64,000 bases of DNA from NCBI GenBank assembly GCA_963662465.1, contig OY759599.1, forward strand, positions 3,776,001 to 3,840,000, given 5' to 3'. Below, one piece after another: positions 1 to 31,621 of this stretch. The notes under the pieces were generated by a model, which saw only the letters and a list, made by a program, of their open reading frames with translations, did no database searches and had not been told where the DNA came from. The position numbers and the translations under genes are program-made. The stretch comes from Desulfatiglandales bacterium (lineage in GTDB: Bacteria; Desulfobacterota; DSM-4660; Desulfatiglandales; Desulfatiglandaceae). Each line of letters starts with the position of its first letter. Position 1 is the first letter of the stretch.

Positions 1-773
1 AGCGTCTGTTGTACCGAATAGGGGAGATTTCCCACTTCATCCAGGAACAGTGTTCCGCCTTGCGCCAATTCGAAATGTCCGATTTTGTCCGTATGGGCGC
101 CGGTAAACGCTCCCTTCCGATAGCCGAAAAGTTCACTTTCAATGAGGGTTTCGGGAATGGCCCCGCAATCCACTGCCACGAAAGGCCCGTCCTTGACCCT
201 GCTCAGATCATGAATGGCGCCGGCCACAAGTTCTTTTCCCGTACCGCTCTCCCCCTCGATCAGGACCGTGAACGCGGTTGGCGCGACCTTTTTTACGTGC
301 CGAACCAGGGTTTTGACGGCATCGCTTTGCCCCATGCGCTCGTAGAGGGGGGGGCGATCGTTCAGCATGTGTTTTAAGTGTGCTACTTCCTGCTCAAGGC
401 CCTGTTTTTCCAGTGCCCTTTGAATGGCAAACATGAAATTGTCCGGGTTAACCGGTTTGGTAACGTAGTCGTAGACGCCCATTTTCATGGCTTTGACGGC
501 GATTTTGATCTCTGCGTATCCCGTTATAATGACGATGGGCGCTTTCGGCGACAGGCGTTTGATTTCTTCGGCAATTTGAAGACCGTCCCGTCCCGGCATG
601 CGGTAATCCAGCAGGACCAGATCCGGGCGATCATTTTTAAAGCGTGAAAGGGCTTCTTCTCCGTCCCGGGCCTGAAGGACCTCGTAATCCGTTTTTTCCA
701 GCATTTGGGTTGTCAGCCAGAGGAAATCCTCATTGTCATCCACCAGCAGTATTTTCTTTTTGGGTGTACTCAT
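1..773 (-). CDS. Sigma54-dependent NtrC-family response regulator (REC-AAA+), 3' end beyond window edge
   Basis: Translated by hand (not in ORF track): ATG at 773 overlaps the upstream stop as ATGA; MSTPKKKILLVDDNEDF...LLDYRMPG...GESGTGKELVA...ESELFGYRKGAFTGA...LFLDEVGNL. Close paralogue of 26549..27985. Confidence 0.92.
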   Translation of the reverse strand, partial: MSTPKKKILLVDDNEDFLWLTTQMLEKTDYEVLQARDGEEALSRFKNDRPDLVLLDYRMPGRDGLQIAEEIKRLSPKAPIVIITGYAEIKIAVKAMKMGVYDYVTKPVNPDNFMFAIQRALEKQGLEQEVAHLKHMLNDRPPLYERMGQSDAVKTLVRHVKKVAPTAFTVLIEGESGTGKELVAGAIHDLSRVKDGPFVAVDCGAIPETLIESELFGYRKGAFTGAHTDKIGHFELAQGGTLFLDEVGNLPYSVQQT

Positions 774-2749
774 CCCTGTCCCCCGCAAAACACGGCATCG
801 CTTATTTCTTCTAATTGCGCCACGCCACGAACCGGATTGGGAAAAAGGGGCGCCCGCACGATGGTCCTCTGGTGAAAACGGGATTGGATTTCCCGAATAC
901 AGTCTTGCTGCTCGTACCGTTTGAGGGTACAGAACCCGCAATCCGTCGGGGGCAGCACCATATTGACGATAATATGTTCGCACGGTACGTTGGCTTTTAG
1001 AAGGGCGTTCATGAGGCGTTCCAACTCCAGAAAGCCCATCCGTTCGGGAATGGTGACGCTTACGAACCGGGTCTTTTGCGTATCGATCAGCGCTTCCTGA
1101 ATTTGCCGCACATTTTTTGAAAGTGCCAGCGCTTTCTCCGCGGCCCCCGTTAAACGGACCACCCCCTTATATTTCATCAGGAGTCTGAAAAAGACCCGAA
1201 GCCATTGTCTCACCAGGTGGGGCAGTTCCAGAAAACGCAGGAGATGGCCCGTGGGCGAGGTGTCCAAAACAAAAATGTCAAATTGATTTTCCTTTCGTAA
1301 ATCCATCATCTTATCAAGACTCATGATTTCATCCAGTCCGGGCGGGGCCATCTCGAGGATTTCGGTCATCACCTGGCGATCGAATTGGATATCCGTCCCT
1401 TTGGACAGAAAATGGTCAAACAGATCTTTCACCTCCTGCTTAAAGGTCTCTTTGAAATTGAACCATAGCTGTTCCGGATCAATTTCAAGGGCATGGAGGT
1501 TGCTGTCGGCATTAGATGCTGGATTGTATGGTATGGGCGTCAGACGGTTGCCAATGGGGATATCAAAGGAATCGGAGAGGGAATGCGCGGGATCGGTAGA
1601 GAAAAGCAGTATCTTTTTCTCCGGATGCCGATGGGCCAGATGGAGGGCCGCGGCAGCGGCAAGGGTGGTTTTCCCGACGCCGCCTTTTCCCCCGAAAAGA
1701 ATGAATTCCAGGTCGGAATTTAAGGAAACGCAGTCATCGGATTCCGGAACGGATGCTGTGATTTTAACCGGGTTTTCCGATACGGGAAGTCCAACGAGAT
1801 AATCCGCTGTTTTTTTCAGGGCCGAAACACCGTTTATTTCATGGGCAAAAAGGGGGACCTGAATTTTTTCCAAACCGGAAAACGCCGTATCTATTTTTTG
1901 AAGCGCCTGTTTCTGATTTTCCTTTCTGGACCTGCAAAATGGACACGCATCACCTTGCGCCACACGGTTGACAAGCATTTCCCGAACTGGAACGTTTATT
2001 TTTTCGAGGGATTTCAACAATCTTATGGTTTCAAGGACGCTCATCAGTTCCGGAATCAACACGGGAACAAATCGTGTGCTTTCCCGGTTGGAAAGCATCT
2101 TTCGCACCATGTTGATGTCTGAGGAGAGGTTGATTAAAAAAAGGTCGCATTCATCTTTGATATACTTCTTTCCCGTGAAGTGCCTGAACATATAGCGATG
2201 TTTATGCTGCATCAGGTCCATCACGGCAATCCACTTTTTCATCTGGTTTGGCAGGTCAAGCATCCTGACTGTGTGTCCCGTGGGCGCCGTGTCTACAATC
2301 AGGGTGTCGAAGGCGTGTTCTTTTAAGAGTCTCGCCATTTCAATAATGGCCATGACTTCATCCATGCCGGGCAGGGAAAGGTCCAGAAAGTCGGCGATGT
2401 CCTCCTGGTCGAAATACGTCCCCCGTTCCGCCAGTTTCCTGATGACCTCCTGGTTTTTCTCTTTGAAATGGTTCATGAGTTGGGCCGCATCCAGTTCATG
2501 GGCGAAGAGGTTGGACGTGGGGCCTGCCACGGGGGTGATATGATCCCCGATCTGAATGCCGAGGCTGTCCGACAGGGAATGGGCCGGGTCCGTGGAGATG
2601 ATGAGGATTTTCTTCCGTCCACGGGAATTTTCGGCAAGATAAAGGGCCGTCATGGCGGCCATGGTGGTTTTGCCCACGCCGCCCTTTCCACCGAAGAGAA
2701 TGAGGCGGAGGTCTTTGTTTTGCAGGAATTCAGGGATATTGTTCGTCAT
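770..2749 (-). CDS. Tandem-domain ArsA/Get3(TRC40)-family ATPase
   Basis: Two GGKGGVGKTT P-loops, two STDPAHSLSD switch I motifs, DTAPTGH/DTSPTGH switch II, and CPFC/CGFC motifs near each domain end. Start set at MTNNIPE (ORF track extends to 2800). Confidence 0.9.
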   Translation of the reverse strand: MTNNIPEFLQNKDLRLILFGGKGGVGKTTMAAMTALYLAENSRGRKKILIISTDPAHSLSDSLGIQIGDHITPVAGPTSNLFAHELDAAQLMNHFKEKNQEVIRKLAERGTYFDQEDIADFLDLSLPGMDEVMAIIEMARLLKEHAFDTLIVDTAPTGHTVRMLDLPNQMKKWIAVMDLMQHKHRYMFRHFTGKKYIKDECDLFLINLSSDINMVRKMLSNRESTRFVPVLIPELMSVLETIRLLKSLEKINVPVREMLVNRVAQGDACPFCRSRKENQKQALQKIDTAFSGLEKIQVPLFAHEINGVSALKKTADYLVGLPVSENPVKITASVPESDDCVSLNSDLEFILFGGKGGVGKTTLAAAAALHLAHRHPEKKILLFSTDPAHSLSDSFDIPIGNRLTPIPYNPASNADSNLHALEIDPEQLWFNFKETFKQEVKDLFDHFLSKGTDIQFDRQVMTEILEMAPPGLDEIMSLDKMMDLRKENQFDIFVLDTSPTGHLLRFLELPHLVRQWLRVFFRLLMKYKGVVRLTGAAEKALALSKNVRQIQEALIDTQKTRFVSVTIPERMGFLELERLMNALLKANVPCEHIIVNMVLPPTDCGFCTLKRYEQQDCIREIQSRFHQRTIVRAPLFPNPVRGVAQLEEISDAVFCGGQG

Positions 2750-2802
2750 TATAACCGCCCAAAAACATTGATTTACGCGCCTAAATGTGTTAAGCGGCAA
2801 AC

Positions 2803-3097: not shown

Positions 3098-4024
3098 TCA
3101 AGAAAGTACCGAACCGAAAGAATCCTTGTTGAATCTTATTTCCAGCAGGTTGTTTCGAATCCGCAGTTCATAGCCTTCCGGGCTGACCCTCGCCCCCAGG
3201 GAAAGATCCACCCGTAATGAAGCACCGATTTTGTGGCATCTGACCGTGACATGGTCGCCGTGAAAATCAAGCTTCAAATCGTCCGGCAAAACCCCTTTGA
3301 TCTCCATGATGACCCGGATTTGTTCTCCTTCGTCAAAAATGTCCACCAGTCGATCCCCATTGGGCAGGAAACGCTCTTTTCTTCCAATGAGCCACCAGCT
3401 GAAGGTGATGATTTCTCCGGTTTCCGGATCGGGTTTTCTTTTTTCAAAGGAGAGGATAGGGCATCCCAGCTCTTTTTCGGCAATGGGATTGATGGTTTCG
3501 CGAATGACCAGCAGGACATGCATATGATTGGGGGCCTGGATTACCTCAGCCAGGCGGTTGATCGTGGAGTGCCCGTTTTCCCAGAGATGCCATAAAATAT
3601 CCCGACCGTCGGAATCCAATTGTCCTGAAATTTTTTGAATGGTTGCCAGATCCACCTTCAGGAAACGAAGCTGCAGTATTTTCTTTTTCCATATATGGAT
3701 CTTGTTGGTGACAAAAAGAACATTGCCGATTCTTGAACCCGTTTTACCCTGATAAGTGATTCGCAGGGTGGGCCTGGTTTTCAGAACGTAATAATGCTTT
3801 TCATCGTGCAGCTTTTGAATGTCTTCAAGGGAAACCTGAAATCGAATCTCGGGTCTCAAAAAAAAGATCAGCCGTTTGTTGGTCAGAAAACACTCCACGG
3901 GTCGCCAGCCGGCCCGATGGGTTTGCCGAAAGCCGCCCTGATCCGTGAGAATGACATCCTCCCCGGGCAGAAACTCAGGTTTTGATCTGGGCAGCGGCGG
4001 CATGCTTCGTTTGGCCTGTCTCAT
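3098..4024 (-). CDS. Multidomain protein: PH/GRAM-like N-domain, winged-helix-like middle, C-terminal Hsp20/GvpH-like domain
   Basis: GWRPVECFLTNKRLIFF (PH/GRAM-like); DILWHLWENGHSTINRLAEVI (HTH-like); VDIFDEGEQIRVIMEIKGV...RNNLLEIRF (alpha-crystallin-like). Confidence 0.65.
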   Translation of the reverse strand: MRQAKRSMPPLPRSKPEFLPGEDVILTDQGGFRQTHRAGWRPVECFLTNKRLIFFLRPEIRFQVSLEDIQKLHDEKHYYVLKTRPTLRITYQGKTGSRIGNVLFVTNKIHIWKKKILQLRFLKVDLATIQKISGQLDSDGRDILWHLWENGHSTINRLAEVIQAPNHMHVLLVIRETINPIAEKELGCPILSFEKRKPDPETGEIITFSWWLIGRKERFLPNGDRLVDIFDEGEQIRVIMEIKGVLPDDLKLDFHGDHVTVRCHKIGASLRVDLSLGARVSPEGYELRIRNNLLEIRFNKDSFGSVLS

Positions 4025-4051: not shown

Positions 4052-4077
4052 GGGCAACCACAGGGGGTTGCCCCTAC
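4052..4077 (-). repeat. GTAG-type REP-like palindrome overlapping the dnaK stop codon
   Basis: Minus strand GTAGGGGCAACCCCCTGTGGTTGCCC: GTAG tetranucleotide followed by a GGGCAACC/GGTTGCCC hairpin. Confidence 0.6.
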
Positions 4078-5786
4078 GCCTCTTTCAAAAGCTCCCGTAA
4101 CTGCCCGGTCAAGTCTTTTATGATGCCGGGGTCGCCTTCAAACAAGGCCTCTTTCAGATCAAAAACAACGTCTTCGATTTTATTTTCATAAGCCTTTGAC
4201 ATGCCCTTTTTTTCCGTCAGGGTGCATTCCGCCGCACGCATCATGCTGTCGGCCCGAATGTTGATCTCGGTTTCTTCCCGTCTTTTCATGTCCTCCAGAA
4301 CAGCGACTTCCGCTTCCCCAATAGCCCTGGCCACTTCTTCGTCGGACAACAGGTGTGAGGCGTCGATTTCGATGCCCGTTTGTTGTTCCGTATAGAGGTC
4401 CGTGGCGGACACGTGAACAATGCCGTTCACATCAATTTCAAAATTGACCTCTACCTTGCCTTTTCCCCTGGGAAGGGGCGGAAGTCCGGTCAATTTGAAC
4501 TGGCCGAGGCTGATGTTGTCTTCGGCCATTTCCCGTTCTCCCTGAAGCACGTGAAAATCCATTTCCACCTGGTTGTCCTCCGCGTTGGTGAAGATCTGTC
4601 CAGCGGAGGTGGGGATGGTGGCATTTCTTTCAATGATTCGGGCAAAAAGGCCCCCTTCCGTTTCAATTCCCAGGGAAAGAGGCGTGACGTCCACCAGAAC
4701 CACATCGTCAATTTCCCCCGTGAGAACGCCGGCCTGAATAGCGGCGCCGATTCCCACCACTTCATCGGGGTTGATGCGGATAAAGGGCTTTCGGTGAAAG
4801 GTCTTTTCCACCATACGTCGTATGGCGGGCATCCGTGTGGCGCCGCCCACCAGAACAACCCGATCGATTTGCTCGGGGGTCAACCGGGCATCTTTCAAGG
4901 CCTGCAGGGTTGGGGGCAGGAGTCCATCGCGCAAATCAGCGGTGATGGCTTCAAAGGTGTCCCGCTCCAGGGAGATGGTTTCCGTGTCTCCCGTATGATG
5001 GGCTATTTTCAGGAAATGCAGGGGGATATCGATGCGCGGTTTGAAAGAAAGGTCCCTCTTGGCTTTTTCCGCCACTTCCTTCAACTGTTCCATTTCCATT
5101 GCGTCGGAACGGATGCGGCGTCCGAATTGATGCAAAATCTGGTCGGATAGATGGGCGACCAGCCTTTCATCCCAGTCGTCCCCGCCTAGCCGGGTATTGC
5201 CGTTGACCGCTTTTACGTGAAAGATGCCGTCTCCCAGCTCCAGAATGGATACATCAAAGGTGCCGCCGCCCAGGTCCCATACCAGAATGGTTTGAATGTT
5301 TTCGCGGTCCAGACCGTAGGCCAAGGCGGCGGCCGTGGGTTCATTGATGATGCGCATCACATCGAGGCCAGCCAGGATTCCCGCCTCCCGGGTAGTTTGG
5401 CGTTGGGCGTCAGTGAAATAGGCGGGCACGGTAATGACTGCCTTTTTAACTGGCATTTTCAGGTAGGTTTCCGCATCGGTTTTTATTTTTCGCAGGATAA
5501 AAGCGGAAATTTCCTGGGGGGAATAGGCCTTGCCATTAAGGGAGACCCTGTGATCCATACCCATATATCGTTTAATAGAGCTGATGGTATTGGCTGGATT
5601 GGCCGCCGCCTGTCTTTTAGCCACTGAGCCCACCAGGCGATGTCCGAGGGCTGTTTCCGCCACAACGGAAGGCGTCAGATTTTCGCCTTCAGCGTTGGGA
5701 ATGACCCTGGCCCGTCCGTTTTCTATTACGGCAGCCACCGAATAGGTGGTGCCCAGGTCTATGCCGATTGCTTTATCCATGTCCAT
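4074..5786 (-). CDS. dnaK: Hsp70/DnaK chaperone (cluster-specific paralogue, short C-terminus)
   Basis: GIDLGTT, TVPAYF, INEPTAAALAYG, DLGGGTFDVS, LVGGATRMP, DVVLVDVTPLSLGIET linker, intact substrate-binding domain. Confidence 0.93.
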   Translation of the reverse strand: MDMDKAIGIDLGTTYSVAAVIENGRARVIPNAEGENLTPSVVAETALGHRLVGSVAKRQAAANPANTISSIKRYMGMDHRVSLNGKAYSPQEISAFILRKIKTDAETYLKMPVKKAVITVPAYFTDAQRQTTREAGILAGLDVMRIINEPTAAALAYGLDRENIQTILVWDLGGGTFDVSILELGDGIFHVKAVNGNTRLGGDDWDERLVAHLSDQILHQFGRRIRSDAMEMEQLKEVAEKAKRDLSFKPRIDIPLHFLKIAHHTGDTETISLERDTFEAITADLRDGLLPPTLQALKDARLTPEQIDRVVLVGGATRMPAIRRMVEKTFHRKPFIRINPDEVVGIGAAIQAGVLTGEIDDVVLVDVTPLSLGIETEGGLFARIIERNATIPTSAGQIFTNAEDNQVEMDFHVLQGEREMAEDNISLGQFKLTGLPPLPRGKGKVEVNFEIDVNGIVHVSATDLYTEQQTGIEIDASHLLSDEEVARAIGEAEVAVLEDMKRREETEINIRADSMMRAAECTLTEKKGMSKAYENKIEDVVFDLKEALFEGDPGIIKDLTGQLRELLKEA

Positions 5787-6399
5787 TGCTATCGCTTTCC
5801 TGAAACTGGTTGAGGGTCTGAAGGATTTTTTCTTCCGTGAAGGGTTTATCGATAAAGCTGTGAACCCCTTTTTCCTTGGCGTCCACCATCCGGTCCTCGC
5901 TGCCGTATGCGCTGATAATCACCACAAAGGTTTCAGAGCATTTTGCCTTGATGACGGGAAGCATGTTCATTCCGTCGCCATCGGGCAGTTTCAGGTCCAG
6001 CAAGATGAGATCGGGTTTTTTTCCCAGGGATCGAATGCCCTCACGAATGGTGTTGGCGGTGCATACATTGTAACCCTTTTCCTTCAAGGCGATCGACAGG
6101 AGCCAGCACAGATCTTCCTCATCGTCTACGATCAGAATATTTCTGATCTTTTTTTTGTGAATGAGGGGAGGGGCTTGTTCGGCCTGTTTTCTTCTCAGCC
6201 GTTCTTTTTCTCGCTTTTCAAAATATGGTTTTAATTCTTTCAATTCTTCGGGCTTGCGCCACCCGGAAAGGCCGCTTCGCCATACAAGGGCCTCGTCCCG
6301 CTTGATGATTCCCTTGAGTATCCAGCTCTTGAGCCTGGCATGATACACCGCGCTGTAGGTGTCCGCTCCTCGCCTCACATCGTATTTGAATTCTCGCAT
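5773..6399 (-). CDS. GYF_2/DUF4339-like domain fused to a response-regulator receiver domain
   Basis: LKSWILKGIIKRDEALVWRSGLSGWRKPEELKEL (GYF_2-like), then ILIVDDEE...LLDLKLPDGDG...ISAY...KPF. Confidence 0.8.
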   Translation of the reverse strand: MREFKYDVRRGADTYSAVYHARLKSWILKGIIKRDEALVWRSGLSGWRKPEELKELKPYFEKREKERLRRKQAEQAPPLIHKKKIRNILIVDDEEDLCWLLSIALKEKGYNVCTANTIREGIRSLGKKPDLILLDLKLPDGDGMNMLPVIKAKCSETFVVIISAYGSEDRMVDAKEKGVHSFIDKPFTEEKILQTLNQFQESDSNGHG

Positions 6400-6408: not shown

Positions 6409-7131
6409 CTAATGCATGGGTAGCGAAATGGTAAAAAGTGCCCCTTTTCCCCGTTGACTTTCGACGCTGATGGTACCGCCATGACTGACCACGGTCCCAT
6501 AGGTCACGGACAATCCAAGACCGATTCCGGAAGCCTTGGTGCTGAAAAACGGGTCGAATATGCGAATAATATCCTCTTCCGGGATGCCGAGCCCCGTATC
6601 CTTGATTTTGATCACGAAATAGCGTCCTTCAATCCCGGTCTCAAGGGTCATGACGCCCCCGTCGGGCATGGCGTCCAAGGCGTTGATCATGACGTTTGAA
6701 AAGACCCGGGTAATCTGTTCCCGGTCCACGTTGATGACCGGGAACCCCGGGCAATAGGCTTTGCGGATGCCGACCTGTTGGGCGGTAATCTTGGCTTTGA
6801 TGGAATCCAGCGTGTTTTCCAGGATGCCGTTGATGTCATGGGGTTGAATATTGAGCTTGGGGGGCCTTGCACAGTTTAACAATTCGGTAATCAAAAAATT
6901 GATCCGTTCCGTATTCCGAACCAGGATTTCGATATGTTTGGCCCAGGGACTATCCTTAGGAAAGGCTTCCCTCAGTTGTCTGACCGACATGGACACATTG
7001 GTCAGGGGATTTCGGATTTCATGGGCGATGCTGGCGGCGATTCGCCCTGTAAAGGCAAGCCTCTCTGAGAGAACGAACTCTTCCTTTCTGGTTTTTCGTT
7101 CTTCGCTGTCGGTTGTAACGGGTGCGTCCAT
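6409..7131 (-). CDS. Cytoplasmic histidine kinase without sensor domain (HisKA-HATPase)
   Basis: AHEIRNPL H-box, NVMINALDAM N-box, DTGLGI, FDPFFSTK, GIGLGL. Start at MDAPV with GAGGG upstream (ORF track start 7218). Confidence 0.9.
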   Translation of the reverse strand: MDAPVTTDSEERKTRKEEFVLSERLAFTGRIAASIAHEIRNPLTNVSMSVRQLREAFPKDSPWAKHIEILVRNTERINFLITELLNCARPPKLNIQPHDINGILENTLDSIKAKITAQQVGIRKAYCPGFPVINVDREQITRVFSNVMINALDAMPDGGVMTLETGIEGRYFVIKIKDTGLGIPEEDIIRIFDPFFSTKASGIGLGLSVTYGTVVSHGGTISVESQRGKGALFTISLPMH

Positions 7132-7157
7132 TTTTTCCCTCATATGAAAGTGGCGGG

Positions 7158-7880
7158 TTAGACCGATGCCCTGATCTCCGGAATTTTTCCAGCTGAAACA
7201 GGACTGCGCCAGCCACATTCGGCGCAGCCGTTTTCAAGCAGTATTTGAACCAAATCAAGCTTCCCGCATTGGGGGCAGGTCTCTCTTTCTTTTTCCGAAA
7301 GGTCCTGAACATCGAAACCTGAATCGAGAATGGCGGCTTCCAGGTTTTTGCGCAATTGCCGAATATGCAGCGATGTCAATCGGCGCCACCGGTTCCCTTT
7401 CAACAGAAGATGCAGTTCCCGTCGCGGTTTTTTCCCGGGAGATGCTTCTTCCTCACTGTGCGCCAGGCCCCGTATTTCGGCAAGGGGCGTTTCGAACAGG
7501 ATCTTTTGGAAATCTTCATGATAAAGGATCAAACGCCCGGGCGTCAGGTAAAAGCGGCCGTACTGCCAGGTATTGAACAACCCGTCGGTCGAGTGGCAGG
7601 CGCCCGGTACTTTGAGGAGTACTTTTTCCCCGGCGATCAAATCATCCTGCTTCTCCTGTCTGTTTTTCCGTTCCCACTCCCTGGTTTTCTCGTCCCACGC
7701 CTGCATGACCCCGTATTTCAGCATGGTTTCCATGCCTGCCAACGCCGCCCGGAGATTGACGCCAATGAGCGGAATGCCCGCAACAGATACGATGAGGTCC
7801 GCATGAATGACCAGGCCCTTGTCCAGAACGCGATCCAGGAGGTCGACTAACGTTGCGTGGGTATTTCGTTTGGGGATCAT
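7158..7880 (-). CDS. gvpM: GvpM-like (GvpA/J family) protein fused to a PH/GRAM-like domain and a C-terminal Zn ribbon
   Basis: LVDLLDRVLDKGLVIHADLIVSVAGIPLIGVNLRAALAGMETMLKYG resembles haloarchaeal GvpM (ADIPLIGISLRAAIAGM); then WQYGRFYLTPGRLIL and CPQC...GCAECGW. Confidence 0.8.
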   Translation of the reverse strand: MIPKRNTHATLVDLLDRVLDKGLVIHADLIVSVAGIPLIGVNLRAALAGMETMLKYGVMQAWDEKTREWERKNRQEKQDDLIAGEKVLLKVPGACHSTDGLFNTWQYGRFYLTPGRLILYHEDFQKILFETPLAEIRGLAHSEEEASPGKKPRRELHLLLKGNRWRRLTSLHIRQLRKNLEAAILDSGFDVQDLSEKERETCPQCGKLDLVQILLENGCAECGWRSPVSAGKIPEIRASV

Positions 7881-7882
7881 AA

Positions 7883-7959: not shown

Positions 7960-7960
7960 T

Positions 7961-8983: not shown

Positions 8984-9295
8984 CTAATGATCTCTATCTT
9001 CCCACCTTTCCGGGTTGATGATTTGATCCAGTATATCGTCCACAATGCTGTCCAAACCGTCCCGGACCGACTTAACCGATTCCGTGATGCCCTGTTCGAT
9101 CTTCATTTCTTCGATGGCCGTGTCCAGGTCCATCAGGGCTTCACCCAGTCGATTGGTTTCCTCTTCCGTCAGGGTTCCCCCTTCCATGCGTTTCAGGGCC
9201 TGCAGCCTGAGCGCGTCCTTGATGATTTCCACCAGGGCCACCACCAGGCCCAGCACCCCGTGCTTGAGGTTTTTTTCGTCAATGTCGATGGACAT
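8984..9295 (-). CDS. gvpK: Gas vesicle protein K
   Basis: LGLVVALVEIIKDALRLQALKRMEGGTLTEEETNRLGEAL is a typical GvpK pattern. Confidence 0.92.
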   Translation of the reverse strand: MSIDIDEKNLKHGVLGLVVALVEIIKDALRLQALKRMEGGTLTEEETNRLGEALMDLDTAIEEMKIEQGITESVKSVRDGLDSIVDDILDQIINPERWEDRDH

Positions 9296-10501: not shown

Positions 10502-10768
10502 CTACTCCGACGCCGATTCGGTATCAATACGCCTTCTCATGCCGGTGCGCCGAAAATCCAGCATATTGCCTTCCCCATCCAGCCGGGTTTCGTAGGCGGC
10601 CAGGATATCCATACTTTCGGGGATAGAATGTTTTTCCACCACTTCAAGGACGACCCGCCATTCATCTTCTTCTCTGGCGACTTCGATGGTGGATGAGACC
10701 TCCAAACCCGTTAGGGCATTCAATTCGGACCTTGCATTCTTGACGATTTGTGCCATGCCGACAGCCAT
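10502..10768 (-). CDS. gvpO: Gas vesicle protein O (GvpO/GvpR family)
   Basis: WRVVLEVVEKHSIPESMDILAAYETRLDGEGNMLDFRR. Confidence 0.9.
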   Translation of the reverse strand: MAVGMAQIVKNARSELNALTGLEVSSTIEVAREEDEWRVVLEVVEKHSIPESMDILAAYETRLDGEGNMLDFRRTGMRRRIDTESASE

Positions 10769-20122: not shown

Positions 20123-20141
20123 TTTTTTTACCTCGTTAAAC

Positions 20142-23871: not shown

Positions 23872-23893
23872 GAATTATTCATTCTCTTTCTCT

Positions 23894-25723
23894 TCACTCG
23901 TCACTTTCTCTGACATTGAATTCCAGCTTGAACTTTTTGTCATCCTCCTGGGATACACACCACAGCTCCAGGGTACCCACCTCCGTTATCCGGGTTTCGA
24001 GGGTGACCGGAACGATGGCGCCGGGTTCGCCTTCCAGACGGGTTTCAAGGGTGGCAACCGGTTCAATTTCCCCTTCCCAGTCTTCAGCAACCGTGCCCAT
24101 GGCATCGTGATGCCGGGTGTTGGACCCCAGGAATTCAAATTTAACCGGTTCTCCCACCACCAGCCCGAATTCTCTGTTTTGAAGCGCCATTTCCGTCCCT
24201 TCTTCCATGCCGAAGGGCGCTACGCACAGGGCTTTTACGGGAGCGGGAATCCCCGGCACCGCCGGCATCGCCGCTTCCACGCCGATATAGTAGGTTTTGG
24301 CAAGACCGCCGCGGATGCGGATCCCGTTGCCTTTTCTCGCCAGGCCGTAGTAGGCCGCTCCCCGGGCAACGGCCAGATCAAAATCAAGGCTTTCAACCTC
24401 TCTGGGTGCGGGACAACCGGCCTCGGCGGTCCAGGAGGAGAGGATTTCCAGGATCCTGTTTCTCAGGCCTCGCGCTTTCATGACGCCGCCGTTAAAAAGA
24501 ATGGCGGTAGGACAAACAAAGTCGCCCCGAGCTGATCCGGAAGTGTCCTGCTGGTTCAGAAATTGGGCCAGATGATGGCTGATGGCGGGATCCGACGCAT
24601 AGGAGAGACCCATCTCCCGCATGCCGGTTCGGCGGTCCTCCCGGGGGCGGGAATCCCTATTGCATTTCGGGAAAAACCCCTCTTTCAGGACCGATTCGAC
24701 CTGCTCTCGCGTTAATTCGGTTTTGATAGCGCCGCCAATGAGTTTGCTGCCCCGCCCCAGGATGGCAATGGGATAGGATTGTGCTTCTACATTTGAGAAA
24801 AGATGCTCTTTGGCCGATCTGCAACCATAGCAAAGTCCCCGCATCTGGTGCGCATTGAGCTTCTGACCCGTTGCGGCCATTTTGCCGGCGATGTCGTAGG
24901 CCAGGGTCAGGTCCATGTTGTCCCCGCCTACCAGGAGATGCTTTCCGACGGAAATCCGTTCCAGGTTTAAATCGCCCTGAGCTTCGGACACCTTTATGAG
25001 GCTCAAATCGGTGGTTCCGCCGCCCACGTCCGTCACCATGATCAGATCATCTACTTTGATTTTATTTCGCCATTTGCCGCGCGTACTGTCGATCCAGGCG
25101 TAAAATGCAGCCTGGGGTTCCTCCAGCAGGGTGGTTTTGGGAAGTCCCGCCATTTCAGCGGCTTCGATGGTGAGGTTTCGGGCCACTGCGTCAAAGGAAG
25201 CGGGCACCGTCAAAAATATCTCCTGATCCTCCAGGCGCAACCGGTTGTCCTCGCGGGCAAAGGTATAATTCCAGCTTTCCCGGATGTGCCCGAGAATCGC
25301 TGCGGACGCCGCTACCGGCGAGAGTTTTTCCCGGTCGTCGGGTCCTTCCCATGGCAGAATCGGTTTGTTTCGGTCCACGCCGGTGTGACAGAGCCATGAT
25401 TTGGATGATGCGATCATGCGCATGGGGATTTCGGCGCCCCTATCCCGGGCAAAGGTTCCGACGGCCATGTTGCTCTGGGGGTCCCATGGCAGTGCCAGGC
25501 CGCCTTCCGCAACATCATGGGGACCCGGCAGCAGTATGAATGAGGGCAGAATGCTCTTTTCCCCCAGAGAGCCCGATGCCACCAGTTGAGGGATTTTGAA
25601 AATTCGAATATCGGGTTCCCTTTGATCATTTACAGCAGCTTCCGTATAGGCCACCACGCTGTTGGTGGTGCCCAGGTCAATGCCCACCACGTAGGTGGGA
25701 TTTGGATTGGTTTCGTTGGTCAT
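23894..25723 (-). CDS. Atypical Hsp70-family protein, paralogue of the adjacent gene
   Basis: GIDLGTTNS, SSKSWLCH, TVPASFD, LLEEPQAAFY, DVGGGTTDL, GGDNMD, AVARGAAYYG. Confidence 0.9.
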   Translation of the reverse strand: MTNETNPNPTYVVGIDLGTTNSVVAYTEAAVNDQREPDIRIFKIPQLVASGSLGEKSILPSFILLPGPHDVAEGGLALPWDPQSNMAVGTFARDRGAEIPMRMIASSKSWLCHTGVDRNKPILPWEGPDDREKLSPVAASAAILGHIRESWNYTFAREDNRLRLEDQEIFLTVPASFDAVARNLTIEAAEMAGLPKTTLLEEPQAAFYAWIDSTRGKWRNKIKVDDLIMVTDVGGGTTDLSLIKVSEAQGDLNLERISVGKHLLVGGDNMDLTLAYDIAGKMAATGQKLNAHQMRGLCYGCRSAKEHLFSNVEAQSYPIAILGRGSKLIGGAIKTELTREQVESVLKEGFFPKCNRDSRPREDRRTGMREMGLSYASDPAISHHLAQFLNQQDTSGSARGDFVCPTAILFNGGVMKARGLRNRILEILSSWTAEAGCPAPREVESLDFDLAVARGAAYYGLARKGNGIRIRGGLAKTYYIGVEAAMPAVPGIPAPVKALCVAPFGMEEGTEMALQNREFGLVVGEPVKFEFLGSNTRHHDAMGTVAEDWEGEIEPVATLETRLEGEPGAIVPVTLETRITEVGTLELWCVSQEDDKKFKLEFNVRESDE

Positions 25724-25752
25724 AGCTCACTCTTCACTTTTCACTAAAAAAA

Positions 25753-26493
25753 TCAAGGAATCTCCACTTCCGCGGGTGCAATAACGCCGGGGTCCGGAGA
25801 ACCGGAAAGGGTCGGCAGGTCAAATTTTCCCACCCGCCAGCCCCGGTGTTCCAGAGCGCCCTTGAAGGGCGGTTCTCCGGATACATTGCCCGTCAGCTTT
25901 ATAGCGGAAGCGTCAAAGCCTTTTTCCACCGTAATCTCTTCACCTTCTTCCCGATCGATAACAGCTTCCAGGGACAGATATTTTTTCAGGGCCTTTTGAC
26001 AGTTCTCTTGAATATTTCGAACAGCCGCGCCGATCTGAGCGTCTTCATAGCCCTTAAGGTCTTCCGCCAGAAAATCCACCAGGCGCCCCTCTCTTTGAAG
26101 CAGGCTCAACAGATGCAAGGACCTGCGCTGGTCTTCCCTGGCGCGGACTTCTTTTTCCTCCGGCGTTGGGCGGTGCGGCTGGGCTTTCGTCACTTTTTTC
26201 GGAGTGGGCGCAACGGGTTTGGGCTGCGCCATTTTTGCCAGGCTTCGCCCAATGGAAGCGCGCAGGGTCAACCAGAGGAGGATTCCAAAAATCACCAGGC
26301 TTCCCCCAAGGACCTGCAGGGATAGTATTCCACCGTTTTCCAACAGCAGTATTAACCCTTCCAGGCCAGCTTTCCCCGGAATTTGCTGCTGAATTTTCCA
26401 GTAACTGAAGCCGGCAAGGGCCAGACCCAGCAGAAGAAGCCACACGAATATCCAAAGGGATAATTTGCTTGAGATTTTCTTTTTCGTTTCCAT
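25753..26493 (-). CDS. DUF2760-domain membrane-anchored protein
   Basis: Two N-terminal TM segments; LLSLLQREGRLVDFL...IGAAVR...LTGNVSGEPPFKGALEHRGW...PAEVEI. Start set at METKK. Confidence 0.85.
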   Translation of the reverse strand: METKKKISSKLSLWIFVWLLLLGLALAGFSYWKIQQQIPGKAGLEGLILLLENGGILSLQVLGGSLVIFGILLWLTLRASIGRSLAKMAQPKPVAPTPKKVTKAQPHRPTPEEKEVRAREDQRRSLHLLSLLQREGRLVDFLAEDLKGYEDAQIGAAVRNIQENCQKALKKYLSLEAVIDREEGEEITVEKGFDASAIKLTGNVSGEPPFKGALEHRGWRVGKFDLPTLSGSPDPGVIAPAEVEIP

Positions 26494-26548
26494 GATTGCA
26501 TCCTTTCTCTTTGCTGAGGTCCTTAAACCCATAAATTCGTCTCAACGT

Positions 26549-27985
26549 TCAATAATTAATGGCCAGACCTTTGACTTTTCGAAGCAATGTTTTGTAATCC
26601 ATTCCCAGCTTTCTAGCCACCCGGCTTTTGTTTCCATTTGATTCCTTCAAAACCGTTCCGATGATTTGTTTTTCCACGGCTTCCACATGGGCGTTGACGA
26701 TTTCCTTGAGGGATTTTCCACCATTAAGCGGCTTTCCGGAAACGGCGTTTGTATTTGTTGATGCAGAGGCAAAAAATGTTTTGTCCCCACATTGCGTGCT
26801 GAACATTAAGTGCTGTCTTTGAATGGGCACATTTTCTTCACAAAGGAGTACGGCCTGGCGGATCACGTTTCGCAGTTCTCGCACATTTCCAGGCCAATGA
26901 TAGGCATCCAGCGATAGCAAGGTTTCCTTGGAGAATCCACCGCATTTTTTGTTCAGCTCTATCTCCACCTCATCCACGAACTTCTTGGCCAGATAGGGGA
27001 TATCCTCCACTCTGTCCTTGAGAGCCGGCATTTTCAGGGAAAATTCATTTAATCGAAAGTACAGATCCGATCTGAAATTCCCCGATTTTATGTCCTTTTC
27101 CAGGGACTGGTTGGTGGCGGCAATGATTCGGACCTTCACGGGCACGGAATTTTTGCCGCCCAACCGCCTGATCATCCGTTCCTGAATCGCCCGAAGAAGT
27201 TTCTGTTGCACGGCATAGGAAAGATTTCCCACCTCGTCCAAAAAAATGGTCCCACCATGGGCCAGCTCAAAATGGCCCGGTTTGTCACTGTCCGCACCGG
27301 TAAAAGCGCCTTTCATGTAGCCGAACAGCTCGCTTTCGATGAGCGTTTCGGGAATGGCGCCGCAGTCCAGGGCCACAAAAGGGCCATCCTTTACGTGGCT
27401 CGCGTTGTGAATGGCGCGGGCAACCAGCTCTTTGCCCGTACCGCTCTCGCCTTCTATGAGAACCGTGAACAGGGTGGGCGCTACCTTTTCCACGTGACGG
27501 ACCAGTTTTTTGATGGGATCGCTGTTCCCCATCAGTTTGTAGAGGAGGGCGCGTTCATTCAGAACCGTTCTCAGATGTTCCACCTCCTGCACCAGATCCT
27601 GTTTTTCCAGGGCCCGTTTGATAGTAAACAGGAGATCGTTGTTGTCAATGGGCTTTGTAACGTAATCGTAAATGCCCATTTTCATGGCCTGGACTGCGGA
27701 ATCAACTTCCGCATAGGCCGTGATCATGACGATGGGCACCGCCGGTATTTTCCGCTTTATCTCAGCACTGACCGTTAATCCGTTCTCCCCGGGCATCCGA
27801 TAGTCCATGAGTACCAGGTTGGGGATATCCCTTTCCAGAAAGTTCAGCGCTTCATGGCCGTTCACCGCATCAATACATTGGTATCCTATGGCGCCCAGGA
27901 TATTCCCCATGGCCCATCGAAAGTCTTCGTCGTCATCCACCACCAGTATTTTGATTTTGGGTTTAATTTCCGTTTCAGCGGTCAT
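26549..27985 (-). CDS. Sigma54-dependent NtrC-family response regulator (REC-AAA+-Fis HTH), GvrA-like
   Basis: ILVVDDD, GESGTGKE, GAFTGA, FLDEVG, WPGNVRELRN, C-terminal HTH. Confidence 0.95.
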   Translation of the reverse strand: MTAETEIKPKIKILVVDDDEDFRWAMGNILGAIGYQCIDAVNGHEALNFLERDIPNLVLMDYRMPGENGLTVSAEIKRKIPAVPIVMITAYAEVDSAVQAMKMGIYDYVTKPIDNNDLLFTIKRALEKQDLVQEVEHLRTVLNERALLYKLMGNSDPIKKLVRHVEKVAPTLFTVLIEGESGTGKELVARAIHNASHVKDGPFVALDCGAIPETLIESELFGYMKGAFTGADSDKPGHFELAHGGTIFLDEVGNLSYAVQQKLLRAIQERMIRRLGGKNSVPVKVRIIAATNQSLEKDIKSGNFRSDLYFRLNEFSLKMPALKDRVEDIPYLAKKFVDEVEIELNKKCGGFSKETLLSLDAYHWPGNVRELRNVIRQAVLLCEENVPIQRQHLMFSTQCGDKTFFASASTNTNAVSGKPLNGGKSLKEIVNAHVEAVEKQIIGTVLKESNGNKSRVARKLGMDYKTLLRKVKGLAINY

Positions 27986-28079: not shown

Positions 28080-29615
28080 TTAGGGGTGAATCCCGCGTAA
28101 TTCATGAGTGTTTACCGGTAGTTTTACAGTGATTCGGGTCCCCCCCTGTTCTCCGCATTCCACAGTGATGTTTCCATGGTGTTGTTCCACGATGGCGTGG
28201 CAAATGCTGAGACCCAGACCCGTGCCGCCATCCTTGGTGGTAAAAAACGGGTCAAATATCCGCTGTCGGTACTCCCGGGGGATCCCCGGGCCATCGTCCG
28301 CAACGCTGATTTCCAGCATTTGATCCCCTGTGGGGGCCACCCTGGTTTCAAGGCTAATGGTTCCTTTTCCGGGCAGGGCCTGAATGGCATTTTGGATCAG
28401 ATTAAGGCAGATCTGCCCCAGTTTTTCCTCATCGCCCGGGATCTCGGGCAGCCCCTCTTCAAGCCGCTTTACAAAGGTAATACGGGAAGAATCCACCTCC
28501 AGTTCAGCCATACGCAGCATTCTTTCAAACAGTGGGTTCAGGTCCACGGATTTCAAGTTAAGGCGGTCCGGTCGGGCAAAGGCCAGCAATTCGCTGATAA
28601 GCTTGCCGGCCCGCTGACTGTTTCGATGAATGACCTGGAAATTTTCAGCGACCAGCCCTTCAGGGTTCATGTTTTCCATACAGAACTGGGCACATGAGCT
28701 GATGACCGCCAGTGGATTCCTGAGTTCGTGAGCAAGTCCCGCTGAAAGTTGTCCCAGGGAAGACATTTTTTCCGACCGGATCAGCATCTCTTCCATGCGT
28801 TTCTGTTGCGAGATATCCCGAAGAAAATTGAAGGTAGCCGGTCTGTCCTGCCATGTGGTGGCCACTGTCTGGCACACCACCCATAGAAAAGAACCGTCCT
28901 TTTTCCGTATTCTGAATTTGTTTTCGGTGGGCAAATGCTTCCCTGCCATTCGCTGACGGTATCGTTTTAGGGCTTCGGTACGATCATCGGGATGAAGCAG
29001 GGTTGAGAGGGGCGTATCCAGAATTTCGTCTCGGGAAAAACCCGTCAGTTCCACTCCCCTTTTATTGACAAACTTCAAGAGACCATTTTGAAGGACCACG
29101 ATGGCATCCGTGGAGTTGTTGACGATATTTTTATACTTGATCTGGGATTCCCTCAACCGAAAGGTTTTTTCCTTGAAGTCCCGTTCCAACTCAACAATAC
29201 GGTTTCTCAGTTCCTTCAGAACGGAGGTGTTTCTTAATGTCTGCTCCCTGTTGTTCAGTGCCCGTTGAACCGTCAGTTTGAGTTCCATCATATCGAAGGG
29301 TTTTATCAGGTAATCAATGGCGCCGTAGCGAAAAAATACCTTTTTGAGACCTCCCAGTTCAATGTTCCCGGTAATCATGATCACTTGAATATAGTGATCA
29401 ATTGCCTTGATCTGCTTGAGTGCTTCCACACCGCCCATTTTCGGCATGGCCACATCCAGGATGGCCACGTCGATGGGGTGCTTTTGGGTAAGCGCTACCG
29501 CCTCTTCGCCATCGCATGCGAAAAACAGGCTGTAGGCATCGTTTCGAAGCAGCTTTTCAAGCATTTTTCGAATACTCGGTTCGTCGTCGGCGATCAGGAT
29601 GTTTTTTTCAGCCAT
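28080..29615 (-). CDS. Soluble hybrid histidine kinase REC-PAS-HisKA-HATPase
   Basis: ILIADDE...LDVAMPKMGG; PAS (LLHPDDR...RKKDGSFLWV); AHELRNPL; GGTGLGL; no TM segment. Start at MAEKNI (ORF track start 29630). Confidence 0.92.
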   Translation of the reverse strand: MAEKNILIADDEPSIRKMLEKLLRNDAYSLFFACDGEEAVALTQKHPIDVAILDVAMPKMGGVEALKQIKAIDHYIQVIMITGNIELGGLKKVFFRYGAIDYLIKPFDMMELKLTVQRALNNREQTLRNTSVLKELRNRIVELERDFKEKTFRLRESQIKYKNIVNNSTDAIVVLQNGLLKFVNKRGVELTGFSRDEILDTPLSTLLHPDDRTEALKRYRQRMAGKHLPTENKFRIRKKDGSFLWVVCQTVATTWQDRPATFNFLRDISQQKRMEEMLIRSEKMSSLGQLSAGLAHELRNPLAVISSCAQFCMENMNPEGLVAENFQVIHRNSQRAGKLISELLAFARPDRLNLKSVDLNPLFERMLRMAELEVDSSRITFVKRLEEGLPEIPGDEEKLGQICLNLIQNAIQALPGKGTISLETRVAPTGDQMLEISVADDGPGIPREYRQRIFDPFFTTKDGGTGLGLSICHAIVEQHHGNITVECGEQGGTRITVKLPVNTHELRGIHP

Positions 29616-29800
29616 GGAGATTTTTTTCAAGAAATTGGGTTCAGGTCCGTCGACGCCCGTTCGGGCACAAGGGAAAACCGAGGTTTAAATTTTAATAACT
29701 TGCCCTGCAAAATGGCTGCAACATGCTGGAATAGCAGATTTAGTCAGCTTTTCGAGAGGACCAGGAAATAAAGAATGCTACTCCAGTTTTGTCGAGGATG

Positions 29801-30475
29801 TCAAGAAGAGATGTGCGAGACCATATAGTCGGACAATATTGCCTGTTTTTCCCGCAGCCCTGGCGTGTACAGGGTTTTGAAATAATCCCGCACCTTTTTG
29901 ATTTCTTTGAGTTCCAAAACATCTATGTCGTCTTCAAGATAAGACTTCACTCGATGGAAAGCCCCCATAAACAGAACGCCGCGACGTTCCAGGGTTTTGT
30001 TGATGCTTTCAGCCGTAAAGCGATCCCGATCCGCCATTAAGCGATCGCCGGTGAGACGCTTCCGAAAGGTTGACATTTCTGCTTTCCCATGGGAATTTTC
30101 CCGGGAAAGTTGGCGTGTTCGTTGGAGTTCCTGTTGAAGTAGCGCAAGGTCTTCGGTTTTTTTGATGATGCCGCCCCGGTTCATCAAGTCAAGGACAATC
30201 CGGTAATTGATACTTCCCCTTTTCACGCCTTCCCGGATAATTCTGTGGGCGAGTTCCCCGCCCACGGGAAGGCCGTCCTGAAATATTTCCAGACCATTGG
30301 CATCCATTTTAGCAAAATAGTCGGAGATTCGATCCCAGAACAATGCCACGGTTTTTTGGTGGTTTTGCCATTTACTTTCCCCGCATATTTCAAGTCCTTT
30401 TTCATTGGCAACGGCTGCCAGGCTTCCCAGGTCCGCTTCCTCGTGAATGATCGGAACATAAATCAAGCTTCTCAT
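29801..30475 (-). CDS. Hypothetical protein with TraB/Tiki-like motifs
   Basis: GGAG RBS then MRSLIYVPIIHEEADLGS...FQDGLP...RDRFTAESI...LFMGAFH. Confidence 0.7.
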   Translation of the reverse strand: MRSLIYVPIIHEEADLGSLAAVANEKGLEICGESKWQNHQKTVALFWDRISDYFAKMDANGLEIFQDGLPVGGELAHRIIREGVKRGSINYRIVLDLMNRGGIIKKTEDLALLQQELQRTRQLSRENSHGKAEMSTFRKRLTGDRLMADRDRFTAESINKTLERRGVLFMGAFHRVKSYLEDDIDVLELKEIKKVRDYFKTLYTPGLREKQAILSDYMVSHISS

Positions 30476-30532
30476 GGAGCGAATCTCCTTTTGATCAAGG
30501 GTCGGATGCAGGCAGCCGTAAACATTCGTCAA

Positions 30533-31621
30533 TCAATGCTTGCCCGTTGGCATTTTTATTTCCAGCATGCCATTCTTATAGGACCAAGTCATCTGATCGG
30601 CAGTTGCTTCGCGGGAAAGAAGAATTTCTTTCTGGTATTTTCGGTTGAGCCCGTCAGCAGTAATATTCAGGATGTCTCCCTTGATTTCGATGTGGACATC
30701 CTTTTCATCGATCCCGGGCATTTCAGCCACCACATTGATTTCTTCCGGTTCATCAAAGACGTCGATGATGGGTTCGCGCATCTCTTCCACCACCGGGCCC
30801 TTGGGTGTCTTTTTAATCGTCTTCTTAATATTCCCGAAAGGCTGAACCGATGGCCTGCCGTTCGCCATGGTGCCCACCCGGACACCGTAAACACCTTTCA
30901 GATCCTGGAGTCCCTTGATTTTATCAAGGCCACTGAAATCAAATTCTCCCGATTTAGATAATCCTTCGCCCTTTTCCGCCAGTTTTGACGCCGCTTCAAT
31001 CAAGTCTCCCAGCCCTTTAAAAAGGCCGCCAAGTCCAAAGCCCGCATCCACTTTTTTTTCATCCATGTCCGTTCCCTCCTGCTTAGTGTCTGTTTGTTGC
31101 TTATGGGTTATTTCCCAAACCCCTTCTTTTTCCGCACAGTTCAGATCGTTTGCTTCAAGAATCGCTTTGAGTCCCTTGACAAGTCCATATCCGGCCAAAC
31201 TTGAAAGAACTGGGACAGCGCTCACGACGGATGTGGATAGGTCCAATGATGCGCTCGCGATGGTTCCCAGCCCGGCCAGAATGCCCGAAGGCGTAAGGGC
31301 CTTCATCATATGGGTATTGATGTCATTAGCAAAATCATCAGCGTTTTCCCCGATTTCAGTCATGAACAGCGCGAATCGACCCCTGTCTAATTGAGAAAGT
31401 TCTCGAAATTTGGATAGACCGATCAGTTGAATGGCTTTGAGTCGATTTAAAAGGTCTTCCGACGGGATGCTTTGTCCCGCTTCGATCCTCATGACCGTGC
31501 TTCTCGATACGCCGAGTGTTTTGGCCAGGTCCGCCATGGACATGCTCCCGAACCGCTGCCGTATTTCTTTCAGGGTTATGCCACAGTTGTCACGCGTTAC
31601 CTTTTGGGGCATTTCTTTCAT
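30533..31621 (-). CDS. XRE-type HTH domain fused in frame to an archaeal-type Hsp20 (GvpH-like), with a probable internal start at 31066
   Basis: N-terminal LKEIRQR...MADLAKTLGVSRSTVMRIEAG; C-terminal REPIIDVFDE...AEMPGI...YKNGMLEIK; GGAGGG 7 nt before the internal ATG at 31066. Confidence 0.8.
   Translation of the reverse strand: MKEMPQKVTRDNCGITLKEIRQRFGSMSMADLAKTLGVSRSTVMRIEAGQSIPSEDLLNRLKAIQLIGLSKFRELSQLDRGRFALFMTEIGENADDFANDINTHMMKALTPSGILAGLGTIASASLDLSTSVVSAVPVLSSLAGYGLVKGLKAILEANDLNCAEKEGVWEITHKQQTDTKQEGTDMDEKKVDAGFGLGGLFKGLGDLIEAASKLAEKGEGLSKSGEFDFSGLDKIKGLQDLKGVYGVRVGTMANGRPSVQPFGNIKKTIKKTPKGPVVEEMREPIIDVFDEPEEINVVAEMPGIDEKDVHIEIKGDILNITADGLNRKYQKEILLSREATADQMTWSYKNGMLEIKMPTGKH

Follow-up and report, generated by a model that had tools for sequence, protein, structure and literature searches.

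Chaperone-type genes within gas vesicle (gvp) clusters have been described before. A two-domain arsA and an hsp20 gene were reported in the gvp clusters of Geobacter uraniireducens, Pelodictyon luteolum, Polaribacter, and Anabaena/Nostoc, with roles in biogenesis proposed (Castillo and Saier 2010, PMC2963123); the accessible text of that paper does not mention Cdc48 or DnaJ. In Serratia sp. ATCC 39006, GvpV-Z were termed "of unknown function" (PMC4982088, Tashiro et al.), and a 23.5-kb cluster from the anaerobe Desulfobacterium vacuolatum DSM 3385 gave vesicles in E. coli (PMC10344784). A group of Get3 proteins with tandem CxxC motifs was defined as "Group 8" (Farkas et al., PMC6593721), in a paper whose accessible text does not mention gas vesicles. 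Here we analyze a gas vesicle locus of about 31 kb in a Desulfatiglandales bacterium (GCA_963662465.1, contig OY759599.1, positions 3,776,001-3,840,000 of the forward strand); this 64,000-nt stretch is referred to below as the window. An earlier note, made from the letters alone, had described about 31 kb of co-oriented gvp and chaperone genes here, and all of the genes it listed lie on the minus strand where it had placed them. The locus is an expanded and widely distributed form of a known organelle cluster, the Hsp20/ArsA part of which is already in print, and its embedded chaperones probably act as an accessory quality-control line for hydrophobic shell proteins, not in core assembly.

Comparison with Characterized Gas Vesicle Clusters

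The locus is of the Serratia/deltaproteobacterial type, sigma-54 regulators included. Its 30 genes all lie on the minus strand, from position 31621 to past the left edge of the window. With Serratia 39006 it shares the gvpA-C-N-V-F-G order (C and V assigned here by position), several GvpF paralogs, a probable GvpH, and Serratia-type regulation: an NtrC activator, a kinase, a receiver, and a sigma-54 promoter before gvpA, which is putative here (consensus match). A GvpF-J-domain fusion, a private DnaK, GvpO, zinc-finger, winged-helix, and PH-domain proteins, and a second NtrC are found in the window but not in Serratia, and the locus is about twice the size. The D. vacuolatum cluster is also deltaproteobacterial and is likened by size, not gene content, the distance from gvpA to the second ntrC being 21.5 kb in the window. 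Two-domain ArsA/Get3 and Hsp20 are shared with the published ArsA and Hsp20 clusters, and CxxC in both halves of the ATPase with Group 8.

Serratia genes were mapped through the translated primers of the deletion study (PMC4982088), not full Serratia protein sequences. Peptides from the gvpZ primers land on residues 245, 456, and 463 of the Cdc48 profile, in an order and spacing that fit gvpZ encoding Cdc48, and a primer upstream of gvpK, at the gvpW site, encodes GLDEIM, which matches the Get3-like profile at residue 488. The primer peptides were exact in 6 of 86 Cdc48 and 13 of 44 ATPase open reading frames (ORFs) and in no other family; the two strongest scored 22 bits, with the next family at 14 and 7. 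From the gvpY primer came one N-terminal six-residue peptide that is one change away from the 224-aa family discussed below (4 of 55), and two further Serratia primers failed to map. On this indirect but coherent evidence, Serratia GvpZ is likely Cdc48, GvpW the tandem Get3-like ATPase, and GvpY the protein with a predicted TIKI fold. The gvpW deletion might leave a working half of the ATPase; its primers did not map. The primer used to delete gvpZ fuses residue 4 directly to the beginning of the second AAA module, and the resulting mutant seems to retain the D2 ring in frame. This mapping, the second ATPase ring apparently left by the gvpZ deletion, and the predicted TIKI/EreA-like fold of GvpY are new here.

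The view that characterized clusters lack such a chaperone set is not borne out, since ArsA and Hsp20 were published (PMC2963123) and Serratia GvpZ and GvpW are likely Cdc48 and Get3-like, nor is the view that no experimental characterization exists, given the Serratia deletions (PMC4982088) and the D. vacuolatum cluster in E. coli (PMC10344784). We found no description of the GvpF-J-domain/DnaK pair, nor any account that places Cdc48, DnaK, or J-domains within a gvp cluster; figures, supplements, subscription literature (Ramsay 2011), or database annotation may name such genes, including GvpZ and GvpW.

Linkage of Chaperone Genes to gvp Clusters

The GvpA domain, CDC48_N over its cut-off, and DUF3731 were each sought in 401 evenly sampled genomes of the phylum; kinship among the genomes is uncorrected, and the figures are counts, not tests. 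GvpA-domain genes were present in 35 genomes. CDC48_N was present in 43, comprising 26 of the 35 gvpA-positive and 17 of the 366 gvpA-negative genomes, and among the 26 it lay on the same contig as gvpA, within 7 kb, in 19 and on other contigs of fragmented assemblies in seven. DUF3731 was present in 46 genomes, 45 of them gvpA-negative, and in none of the 34 gvpA-positive genomes other than that of the window. Because of these counts, we conclude that Cdc48 tracks the gvp cluster and that the DUF2760-Hsp70-Hsp70/DUF3731 cassette does not.

That cassette (21070..26532; Pfam) encodes a DUF2760 protein, a divergent Hsp70 (609 aa), and a divergent Hsp70-DUF3731 protein (933 aa). It lies between ntrC and gvpA, is whole in the window and its nearest relative (G401), is reduced to truncated remnants in G406 and G407, and is absent in the closer relatives L003-L005. 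The two extra Hsp70s, which the earlier note had counted as part of the system, were rejected as gvp chaperones on the DUF3731 counts; they are passengers in a separate cassette. One gvpA-less family (six genomes) carries a Cdc48 of its own clade and a DUF3731 Hsp70 on different contigs.

A GvpN search, in which the best 80 of 183 relatives were kept, found relatives in Desulfobacteraceae, Syntrophales, Chloroflexota, Planctomycetota, Nitrospirota, Acidobacteria, Actinomycetota, Bacillota, Verrucomicrobiota, Elusimicrobia, and others, the closest named ones being Desulfatiglandales metagenome-assembled genomes (MAGs). Forty-two other clusters, 28 from the GvpN relatives and 14 from gvp-positive genomes of the phylum, chosen for long contigs, were extended, and genes were counted over the 41 regions with gvpK in view, window included; limited windows make the presences lower bounds. 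Cdc48 was found in at least 39 of the 41, Hsp20 in 38, GvpF-J in 31, the 224-aa GvpY-like family in 31, DnaK in 27, the Get3-like ATPase in 23, the zinc-finger protein in 22, and the PH-winged-helix-Hsp20 protein in 14. In 31 of 40, the gene immediately upstream of Cdc48 is that for Hsp20, the window being an exception in which the Hsp20 gene has moved to the front. Gene order is shuffled among clusters, with the chaperones still among the gvp genes. In a quick tree, from which one split Cdc48 was left out, 42 gvp-linked Cdc48s fall on one side of a branch and 21 others on the other (SH-like approximate likelihood ratio test, SH-aLRT, 85). Linkage of Cdc48, Hsp20, GvpF-J, DnaK, and the Get3-like ATPase to gvp genes across phyla, as paralogs apart from the housekeeping ones, is thereby borne out by the neighborhood search and the trees, and the cluster layout is shared by many anaerobes across many phyla. 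Two methanotroph plasmids carry Hsp20, the 224-aa family, and Cdc48, and no DnaK.

We regard it as very unlikely that the chaperone genes are a general stress-chaperone island, carried along with the gvp cluster but not acting on Gvp proteins. The DUF3731 cassette shows that passengers enter the locus, and an hsp20-cdc48 pair on Halobacterium pNRC200 (L166 14191-16841) lies far from gvp genes, about 140 kb from the plasmid's gvpN match; however, the chaperone genes are intermingled with the gvp genes in many different, reshuffled arrangements, the GvpF-J fusion links Hsp70 to a Gvp protein, and an Hsp20 match stood beside none of 20 non-gvp bacterial Cdc48 loci, some of which are at contig ends.

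A GvpF-J-Domain Fusion and a Cluster-Specific DnaK

The gene at 11932..12951 encodes GvpF/L (PF06386) fused to a C-terminal J-domain (PF00226, 51 > 27.8) in which the HPD motif is intact. Both domains are present in 119 of its 120 best homologs, and HPD is retained in 27 of 31 GvpF-J fusions. The cluster-specific DnaK (4074..5786; 570 aa) has intact catalytic motifs and no acidic tail; it passed PRK00290 (702 > 648) and missed both the housekeeping equivalog TIGR02350 (687 < 823) and the HscA profile TIGR01991 (555 < 709). Two housekeeping DnaKs, at 48-50% to the cluster DnaK, and three GrpE matches are encoded in the genome, all elsewhere. In the DnaK tree, 27 gvp DnaKs split from 20 housekeeping DnaKs with a support of 100. 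The gvp DnaKs as a group keep the ATPase and linker motifs without the acidic tail, and an insertion present in 20 of 20 housekeeping DnaKs is missing from 23 of the 27, the window DnaK included. An archaeal origin of the module is suggested by this missing insertion together with best profiles that are archaeal Hsp20 and VAT (the Cdc48 tree holds one archaeal member).

Among the 41 clusters, all 27 DnaKs are accompanied by GvpF-J, which occurs alone in four regions (one at a contig end), and ten regions have neither. Because these ten fall in one Cdc48 subclade, the distribution of the J/DnaK pair suggests either a single gain or a single loss.

The HscA/HscB-IscU system pairs a client-binding J-protein with a specialized Hsp70 paralog, encoded with the client, and in these respects the GvpF-J/DnaK pair resembles it. 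It differs in that the HscA profile is missed, the J-domain is C-terminal on GvpF, and the client would be a polymerizing shell protein.

Cdc48, Hsp20, Get3-like, and GvpY-like Proteins

The Cdc48/VAT-type unfoldase (12986..15118), likely of the GvpZ family, has an N-D1-D2 architecture (TIGR01243 970 > 803), has VAT as its best PDB match, and is the sole full-length Cdc48 in the 8.16-Mb genome. It comprises an N-domain and two intact AAA modules, and both of its rings carry aromatic pore loops (motifs checked in 40 homologs). Architecture and pore loops are shared with archaeal VAT/Cdc48 and p97, and an Hsp20 neighbor is found in some archaea. An HbYX tail and a 20S proteasome partner are traits of the archaeal and eukaryotic CDC48/VAT members; in contrast, no HbYX tail was found on the window Cdc48, the C-termini of the 40 homologs being variable, no 20S proteasome was found in the genome, where the lone proteasome-fold match is an HslV-sized protein of 184 aa, and the gene sits in an organelle operon. 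A role as proteasome partner was rejected on the missing tail and 20S genes.

Both of the Hsp20-domain fusions seen by the earlier note stand, one of them by fold model. At 30533..31621, an XRE helix-turn-helix (HTH) domain is fused in frame to a GvpH-type Hsp20 (Pfam HTH_3/HSP20; the archaeal Hsp20 NF041800 is the best NCBIfam match, under its cut-off). A lost stop codon was rejected as the explanation, the fusion being in frame in six other genomes. An internal AGGAGG followed by an ATG at 31066 would yield a free 177-aa Hsp20, and one gene may thus possibly give a long regulator and a short chaperone form. The six in-frame XRE-HTH-Hsp20 genes seen in relatives likewise have an internal start, with a shorter HTH in Chloroflexota. 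The second fusion (3098..4024; 308 aa) combines, in its fold model, a PH domain, a winged helix, and an alpha-crystallin (Hsp20) domain: the alpha-crystallin domain of Hsp20.1 was matched with E 1e-5 and Z 12.1 and PH domains with Z up to 12.8, and no Pfam match to the Hsp20 domain was obtained. The two DnaJ-type zinc fingers (PF00684, CXXCXGXG) had been read as free proteins; this holds for 17255..17623, whereas 9713..10489 has a putative N-terminal winged-helix-like domain, read from the sequence. The latter family recurs in clusters and is split into two ORFs in one relative.

The tandem Get3-like ATPase (770..2800, likely start 2749; TIGR00345 489 > 135), likely of the GvpW family, has a P-loop, switch I/II, and CxxC each present twice; its best PDB matches are algal ArsA1 and an archaeal Get3-like protein. 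Arsenic resistance (ArsA) was rejected as its function (TIGR04291 237 < 650; no ars genes at the locus). Single-domain Get3-like ATPases of 310-330 aa were seen in nine related clusters, in eight of which they lie between hsp20 and cdc48 or directly after hsp20.

The conserved 224-aa protein (29801..30475), likely of the GvpY family, has no Pfam or NCBIfam match. Its fold model, a confident one (predicted local distance difference test 89.5), matched ChaN with Z 8.4 (root-mean-square deviation 4.6, 157 residues aligned), HopBA1 with Z 7.8, and EreC with Z 5.6; these are middling scores, and a Z near 8 can reflect a common arrangement. Five of the top six fold matches belong to what we take to be the EreA/ChaN/TIKI fold, Foldseek gave nothing at E <= 0.001, and the ESM Atlas gave unnamed clusters only. 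An EreA/ChaN/TIKI-like fold is tentatively predicted. Conserved His, Glu, and Asp residues in the family (H11, D67, E108, E116, R150-D151, and H174) suggest an active site. The fold group includes peptidases, and ChaN is a haem binder; that the 224-aa protein is a peptidase or hydrolase is a guess from the model.

A Proposed Accessory Quality-Control Line for Shell Proteins

The proposal of quality control starts from gene content, linkage, intact catalytic motifs, and paralogs distinct from the housekeeping copies, and from these we infer the activities that follow, in two tiers. In the tier shared with Serratia-type clusters, Hsp20 (GvpH) and the Get3-like ATPase (GvpW) would hold stray GvpA, GvpJ, and GvpM, Cdc48 (GvpZ) would extract subunits from misassembled or collapsed shells, and GvpY, of predicted TIKI fold, may cut the released shell protein. 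In the second tier, found in a clade of mostly anaerobes, GvpF would bind monomeric GvpA and its fused J-domain would trigger the cluster DnaK, loading the client onto a private Hsp70 as HscB loads IscU onto HscA, with nucleotide exchange supplied by a GrpE encoded elsewhere. Such a line would raise yield and limit toxicity, or turn shells over, and would be dispensable for building a vesicle. Elements of this scheme have precedents: GvpF binds monomeric GvpA in homologous systems (PMC9501494, PMC11445434), GvpH prevents GvpM aggregation (PMC6107691), GvpA alone is toxic (PMC12848028), and vesicle collapse induces disaggregation chaperones (bioRxiv 10.64898/2026.05.31.729101). The role is put as accessory because vesicles are built in Serratia, and by simpler clusters, in the absence of these genes, and we judge quality control to be its probable content because loss of gvpH, gvpW, gvpY, or gvpZ was compatible with vesicle formation in Serratia but lowered or abolished the signal in E. 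coli (PMC10344784).

Several observations weigh against this proposal. Serratia mutants deleted for gvpH, gvpW, gvpY, or gvpZ still form vesicles (PMC4982088; PMC10344784), with shape and stability unaltered in the gvpH mutant (PMC4982088), and pull-downs with collapsed vesicles in two other species gave no strong binder (bioRxiv abstract). The earlier note had expected its idea to fail if deletion of the chaperones left vesicle number, shape, and turnover unchanged; the retained vesicles bear out half of that, turnover being unmeasured in Serratia, where kinetics, according to the authors, were not measured (PMC4982088). The substrates and partners of the locus proteins are all putative. No Cdc48 match was obtained in 9 of the 35 gvpA-positive genomes, fragmented assemblies among them; no Cdc48, DnaK, or J-fusion is among the genes listed for the Octadecabacter and Spartinivicinus plasmid clusters; and 32 of the 42 other clusters were picked by the similarity of their GvpN to that of the window. 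The J/DnaK co-occurrence is not independent evidence, because the ten clusters with neither form one Cdc48 clade. GvpF-J occurs without a DnaK in view in three clusters on long contigs, and HPD is lost with DnaK kept in four Chloroflexota. These four form one clade with fast-evolving DnaKs, two of which are altered in a conserved ATPase-domain motif; codegeneration of the HPD-less J-domains and DnaK was judged weak, clear motif changes being present in just two of the four DnaKs.

A more demanding alternative, an essential assembly route in the expanded cluster type through which DnaK and Cdc48 deliver and insert GvpA, seems improbable to us. Cdc48 and Hsp20 are kept near-universally in the 41 clusters, and the null phenotype of the Serratia gvpZ deletion is not clean, D2 apparently remaining in frame. 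Yet the Bacillus, Anabaena, and haloarchaeal clusters make vesicles with GvpN alone (PMC9501494, PMC11445434), and a D2-only fragment without the N-domain and D1 would be unlikely to work.

A bolder extension of accessory quality control, which we hold only tentatively and consider rather unlikely, is a dedicated pathway of vesicle disassembly and recycling present in a dozen phyla. Here collapsed beta-sheet shells would be dismantled jointly by an Hsp70 that GvpF directs, in the way auxilin directs Hsc70 to clathrin; by a Cdc48 fed by Hsp20 and acting without a proteasome; and by GvpY as a TIKI-fold peptidase. Serratia gvpH, gvpY, and gvpZ would be the minimal form of this pathway, overlooked because vesicle formation was the sole readout and one ATPase ring survived the gvpZ deletion.

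Regulators and Promoters

The earlier inventory was incomplete, having omitted two NtrC proteins, two histidine kinases, a receiver protein, the DUF2760 protein, and the 224-aa protein. An NtrC-type sigma-54 activator with GAFTGA (26549..27985; Pfam) is GvrA-like, and a REC-PAS-histidine kinase (28080..29630; Pfam, synteny) is GvrB-like by position. A further histidine kinase (6409..7218; Pfam) is followed by a receiver protein (5773..6399; PF00072), GvrC-like by type, with an 80-aa N-terminal extra domain that is kept in close relatives, has no Pfam match at 0.001, and presumably resembles GYF. The second NtrC-type activator (1..773 in the window; 472 aa, 62% to the first) starts at 773, overlaps the stop of the ATPase gene, and is cut by the window edge.

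A sigma-54-type -24/-12 motif, a consensus match, lies on the minus strand upstream of gvpA (20904..20918). Similar motifs are present in 16 of 62 gvpA upstream regions and in 2.6% of random 300-nt windows, and rpoN was found in the genome. Because the motif precedes gvpA, the 31 kb is probably not a single transcript, and its position between the cassette and gvpA suggests that the structural operon begins downstream of the DUF3731 cassette. From gvpN through the PH-winged-helix-Hsp20 gene, spacers are at most 106 nt. Scans for sigma-70 promoters (15 vs 12.8) and terminators (26 vs 29.4) were at chance, and one RNA run, with 0.06 of words matched and contigs short and diverged, was uninformative on transcription or operon structure.

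These regulators bear on the idea that the chaperones are mainly regulatory: they would sense unassembled Gvp proteins and adjust the control of gvpA by the sigma-54/two-component circuit and by the HTH and winged-helix proteins. In Serratia, the gvrABC operon includes gvpH and gvpZ (PMC4982088), ntrC-hsp20-cdc48 are adjacent in ten relatives, Hsp20 domains are fused to HTH and winged-helix domains, and an archaeal regulator-hsp20 operon is known (PMC9133787). We nevertheless think a mainly regulatory role unlikely, for the fusion partner of the J-domain is GvpF, which binds shell protein, rather than a regulator, and the gvpH, gvpW, gvpY, and gvpZ deletions had an effect in E. coli under a heterologous promoter (PMC10344784).

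Shell and Core gvp Genes

The two gvpA copies (20642..20845 and 20370..20573; Pfam) encode identical proteins and are alike at 199 of 204 nt. GvpA scored 124 bits with PRK09371 (cut-off 100) and matched PDB structures 8GBS (E 3e-29, residues 1-67) and 7R1C over its full length; core identity among 24 homologs is 70-100% (median 84%). The suggestion that the locus specifies a gvp-derived compartment serving some purpose other than flotation gains no support from so canonical a GvpA and is in our view highly improbable. Many of the carrier genomes are MAGs from groundwater or other anoxic settings, and a gas-storage role has been put forward for some methanotrophs (PMC11008690); against this, GvpA is canonical over its whole length, the cluster holds no cargo or enzyme genes, and the vesicle producers tabulated in PMC10344784 (Table S1) include sulfate-reducing and syntrophic anaerobes.

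The core accessory set gvpF/L, G, J, K, M, and N is complete (Pfam over cut-off; TIGR02640), with J and M told apart by sub-cut-off NCBIfam matches. It comprises gvpN, an AAA+ ATPase (16253..17167; TIGR02640 348 > 267); three further GvpF/L genes (PF06386) at 15146..15898, 11160..11912, and, with an N-terminal extension, 7961..8965; gvpG (10875..11114; PF05120); gvpK (8984..9295; PF05121); gvpJ with a C-terminal Cys ribbon (9355..9729; PF00741, GvpJ the best NCBIfam match, under cut-off); and a GvpM-type domain (7158..7880; PF00741, GvpM the best NCBIfam match, under cut-off) joined to a Cys ribbon and a probable PH-like domain. The locus also has gvpO (10502..10768; PF05800). The genes previously called C-like and V-like keep those names by position, no GvpC or GvpV profile in Pfam or NCBIfam being matched: the GvpC-like protein (17700..19250), between gvpA and gvpN, has helical repeats of about 65 aa, and the small GvpV-like protein (15918..16232) is kept after gvpN in relatives. 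A helical conserved protein (19493..20182) has no profile match and recurs next to gvpA. Seven related clusters have a second gvpN, 50-57% identical, preceded by an unidentified ORF of 370-395 aa, and some have several small winged-helix-like genes.

Seven-base repeats form short arrays in the intergenic spacers 9296-9354, 7881-7960, and 25724-25752, and the N-terminal part of GvpL at 7961-8965 seemingly contains a similar repeat. Upstream on the same strand (32061-40166) are two acyl-CoA ligases and a branched-chain-type ABC transporter, unrelated to the gvp cluster.

Implications

It is still an open question how GvpA stays soluble and how collapsed shells are cleared (PMC11445434; 10.64898/2026.05.31.729101), and the use of gas vesicles as ultrasound reporters is limited by the toxicity of GvpA (PMC12848028). 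For both GvpA solubility and collapsed-shell clearance, the cluster offers candidate machinery. Because Serratia gvpH, gvpW, gvpY, and gvpZ are likely the same genes, the idea, including vesicle turnover, is testable in existing Serratia genetics and with the bARG-Ser reporter, and the GvpF-J/DnaK pair is a ready add-on for reporter systems. If true, accessory quality control would assign a function to a bacterial Cdc48 lineage without a proteasome partner.

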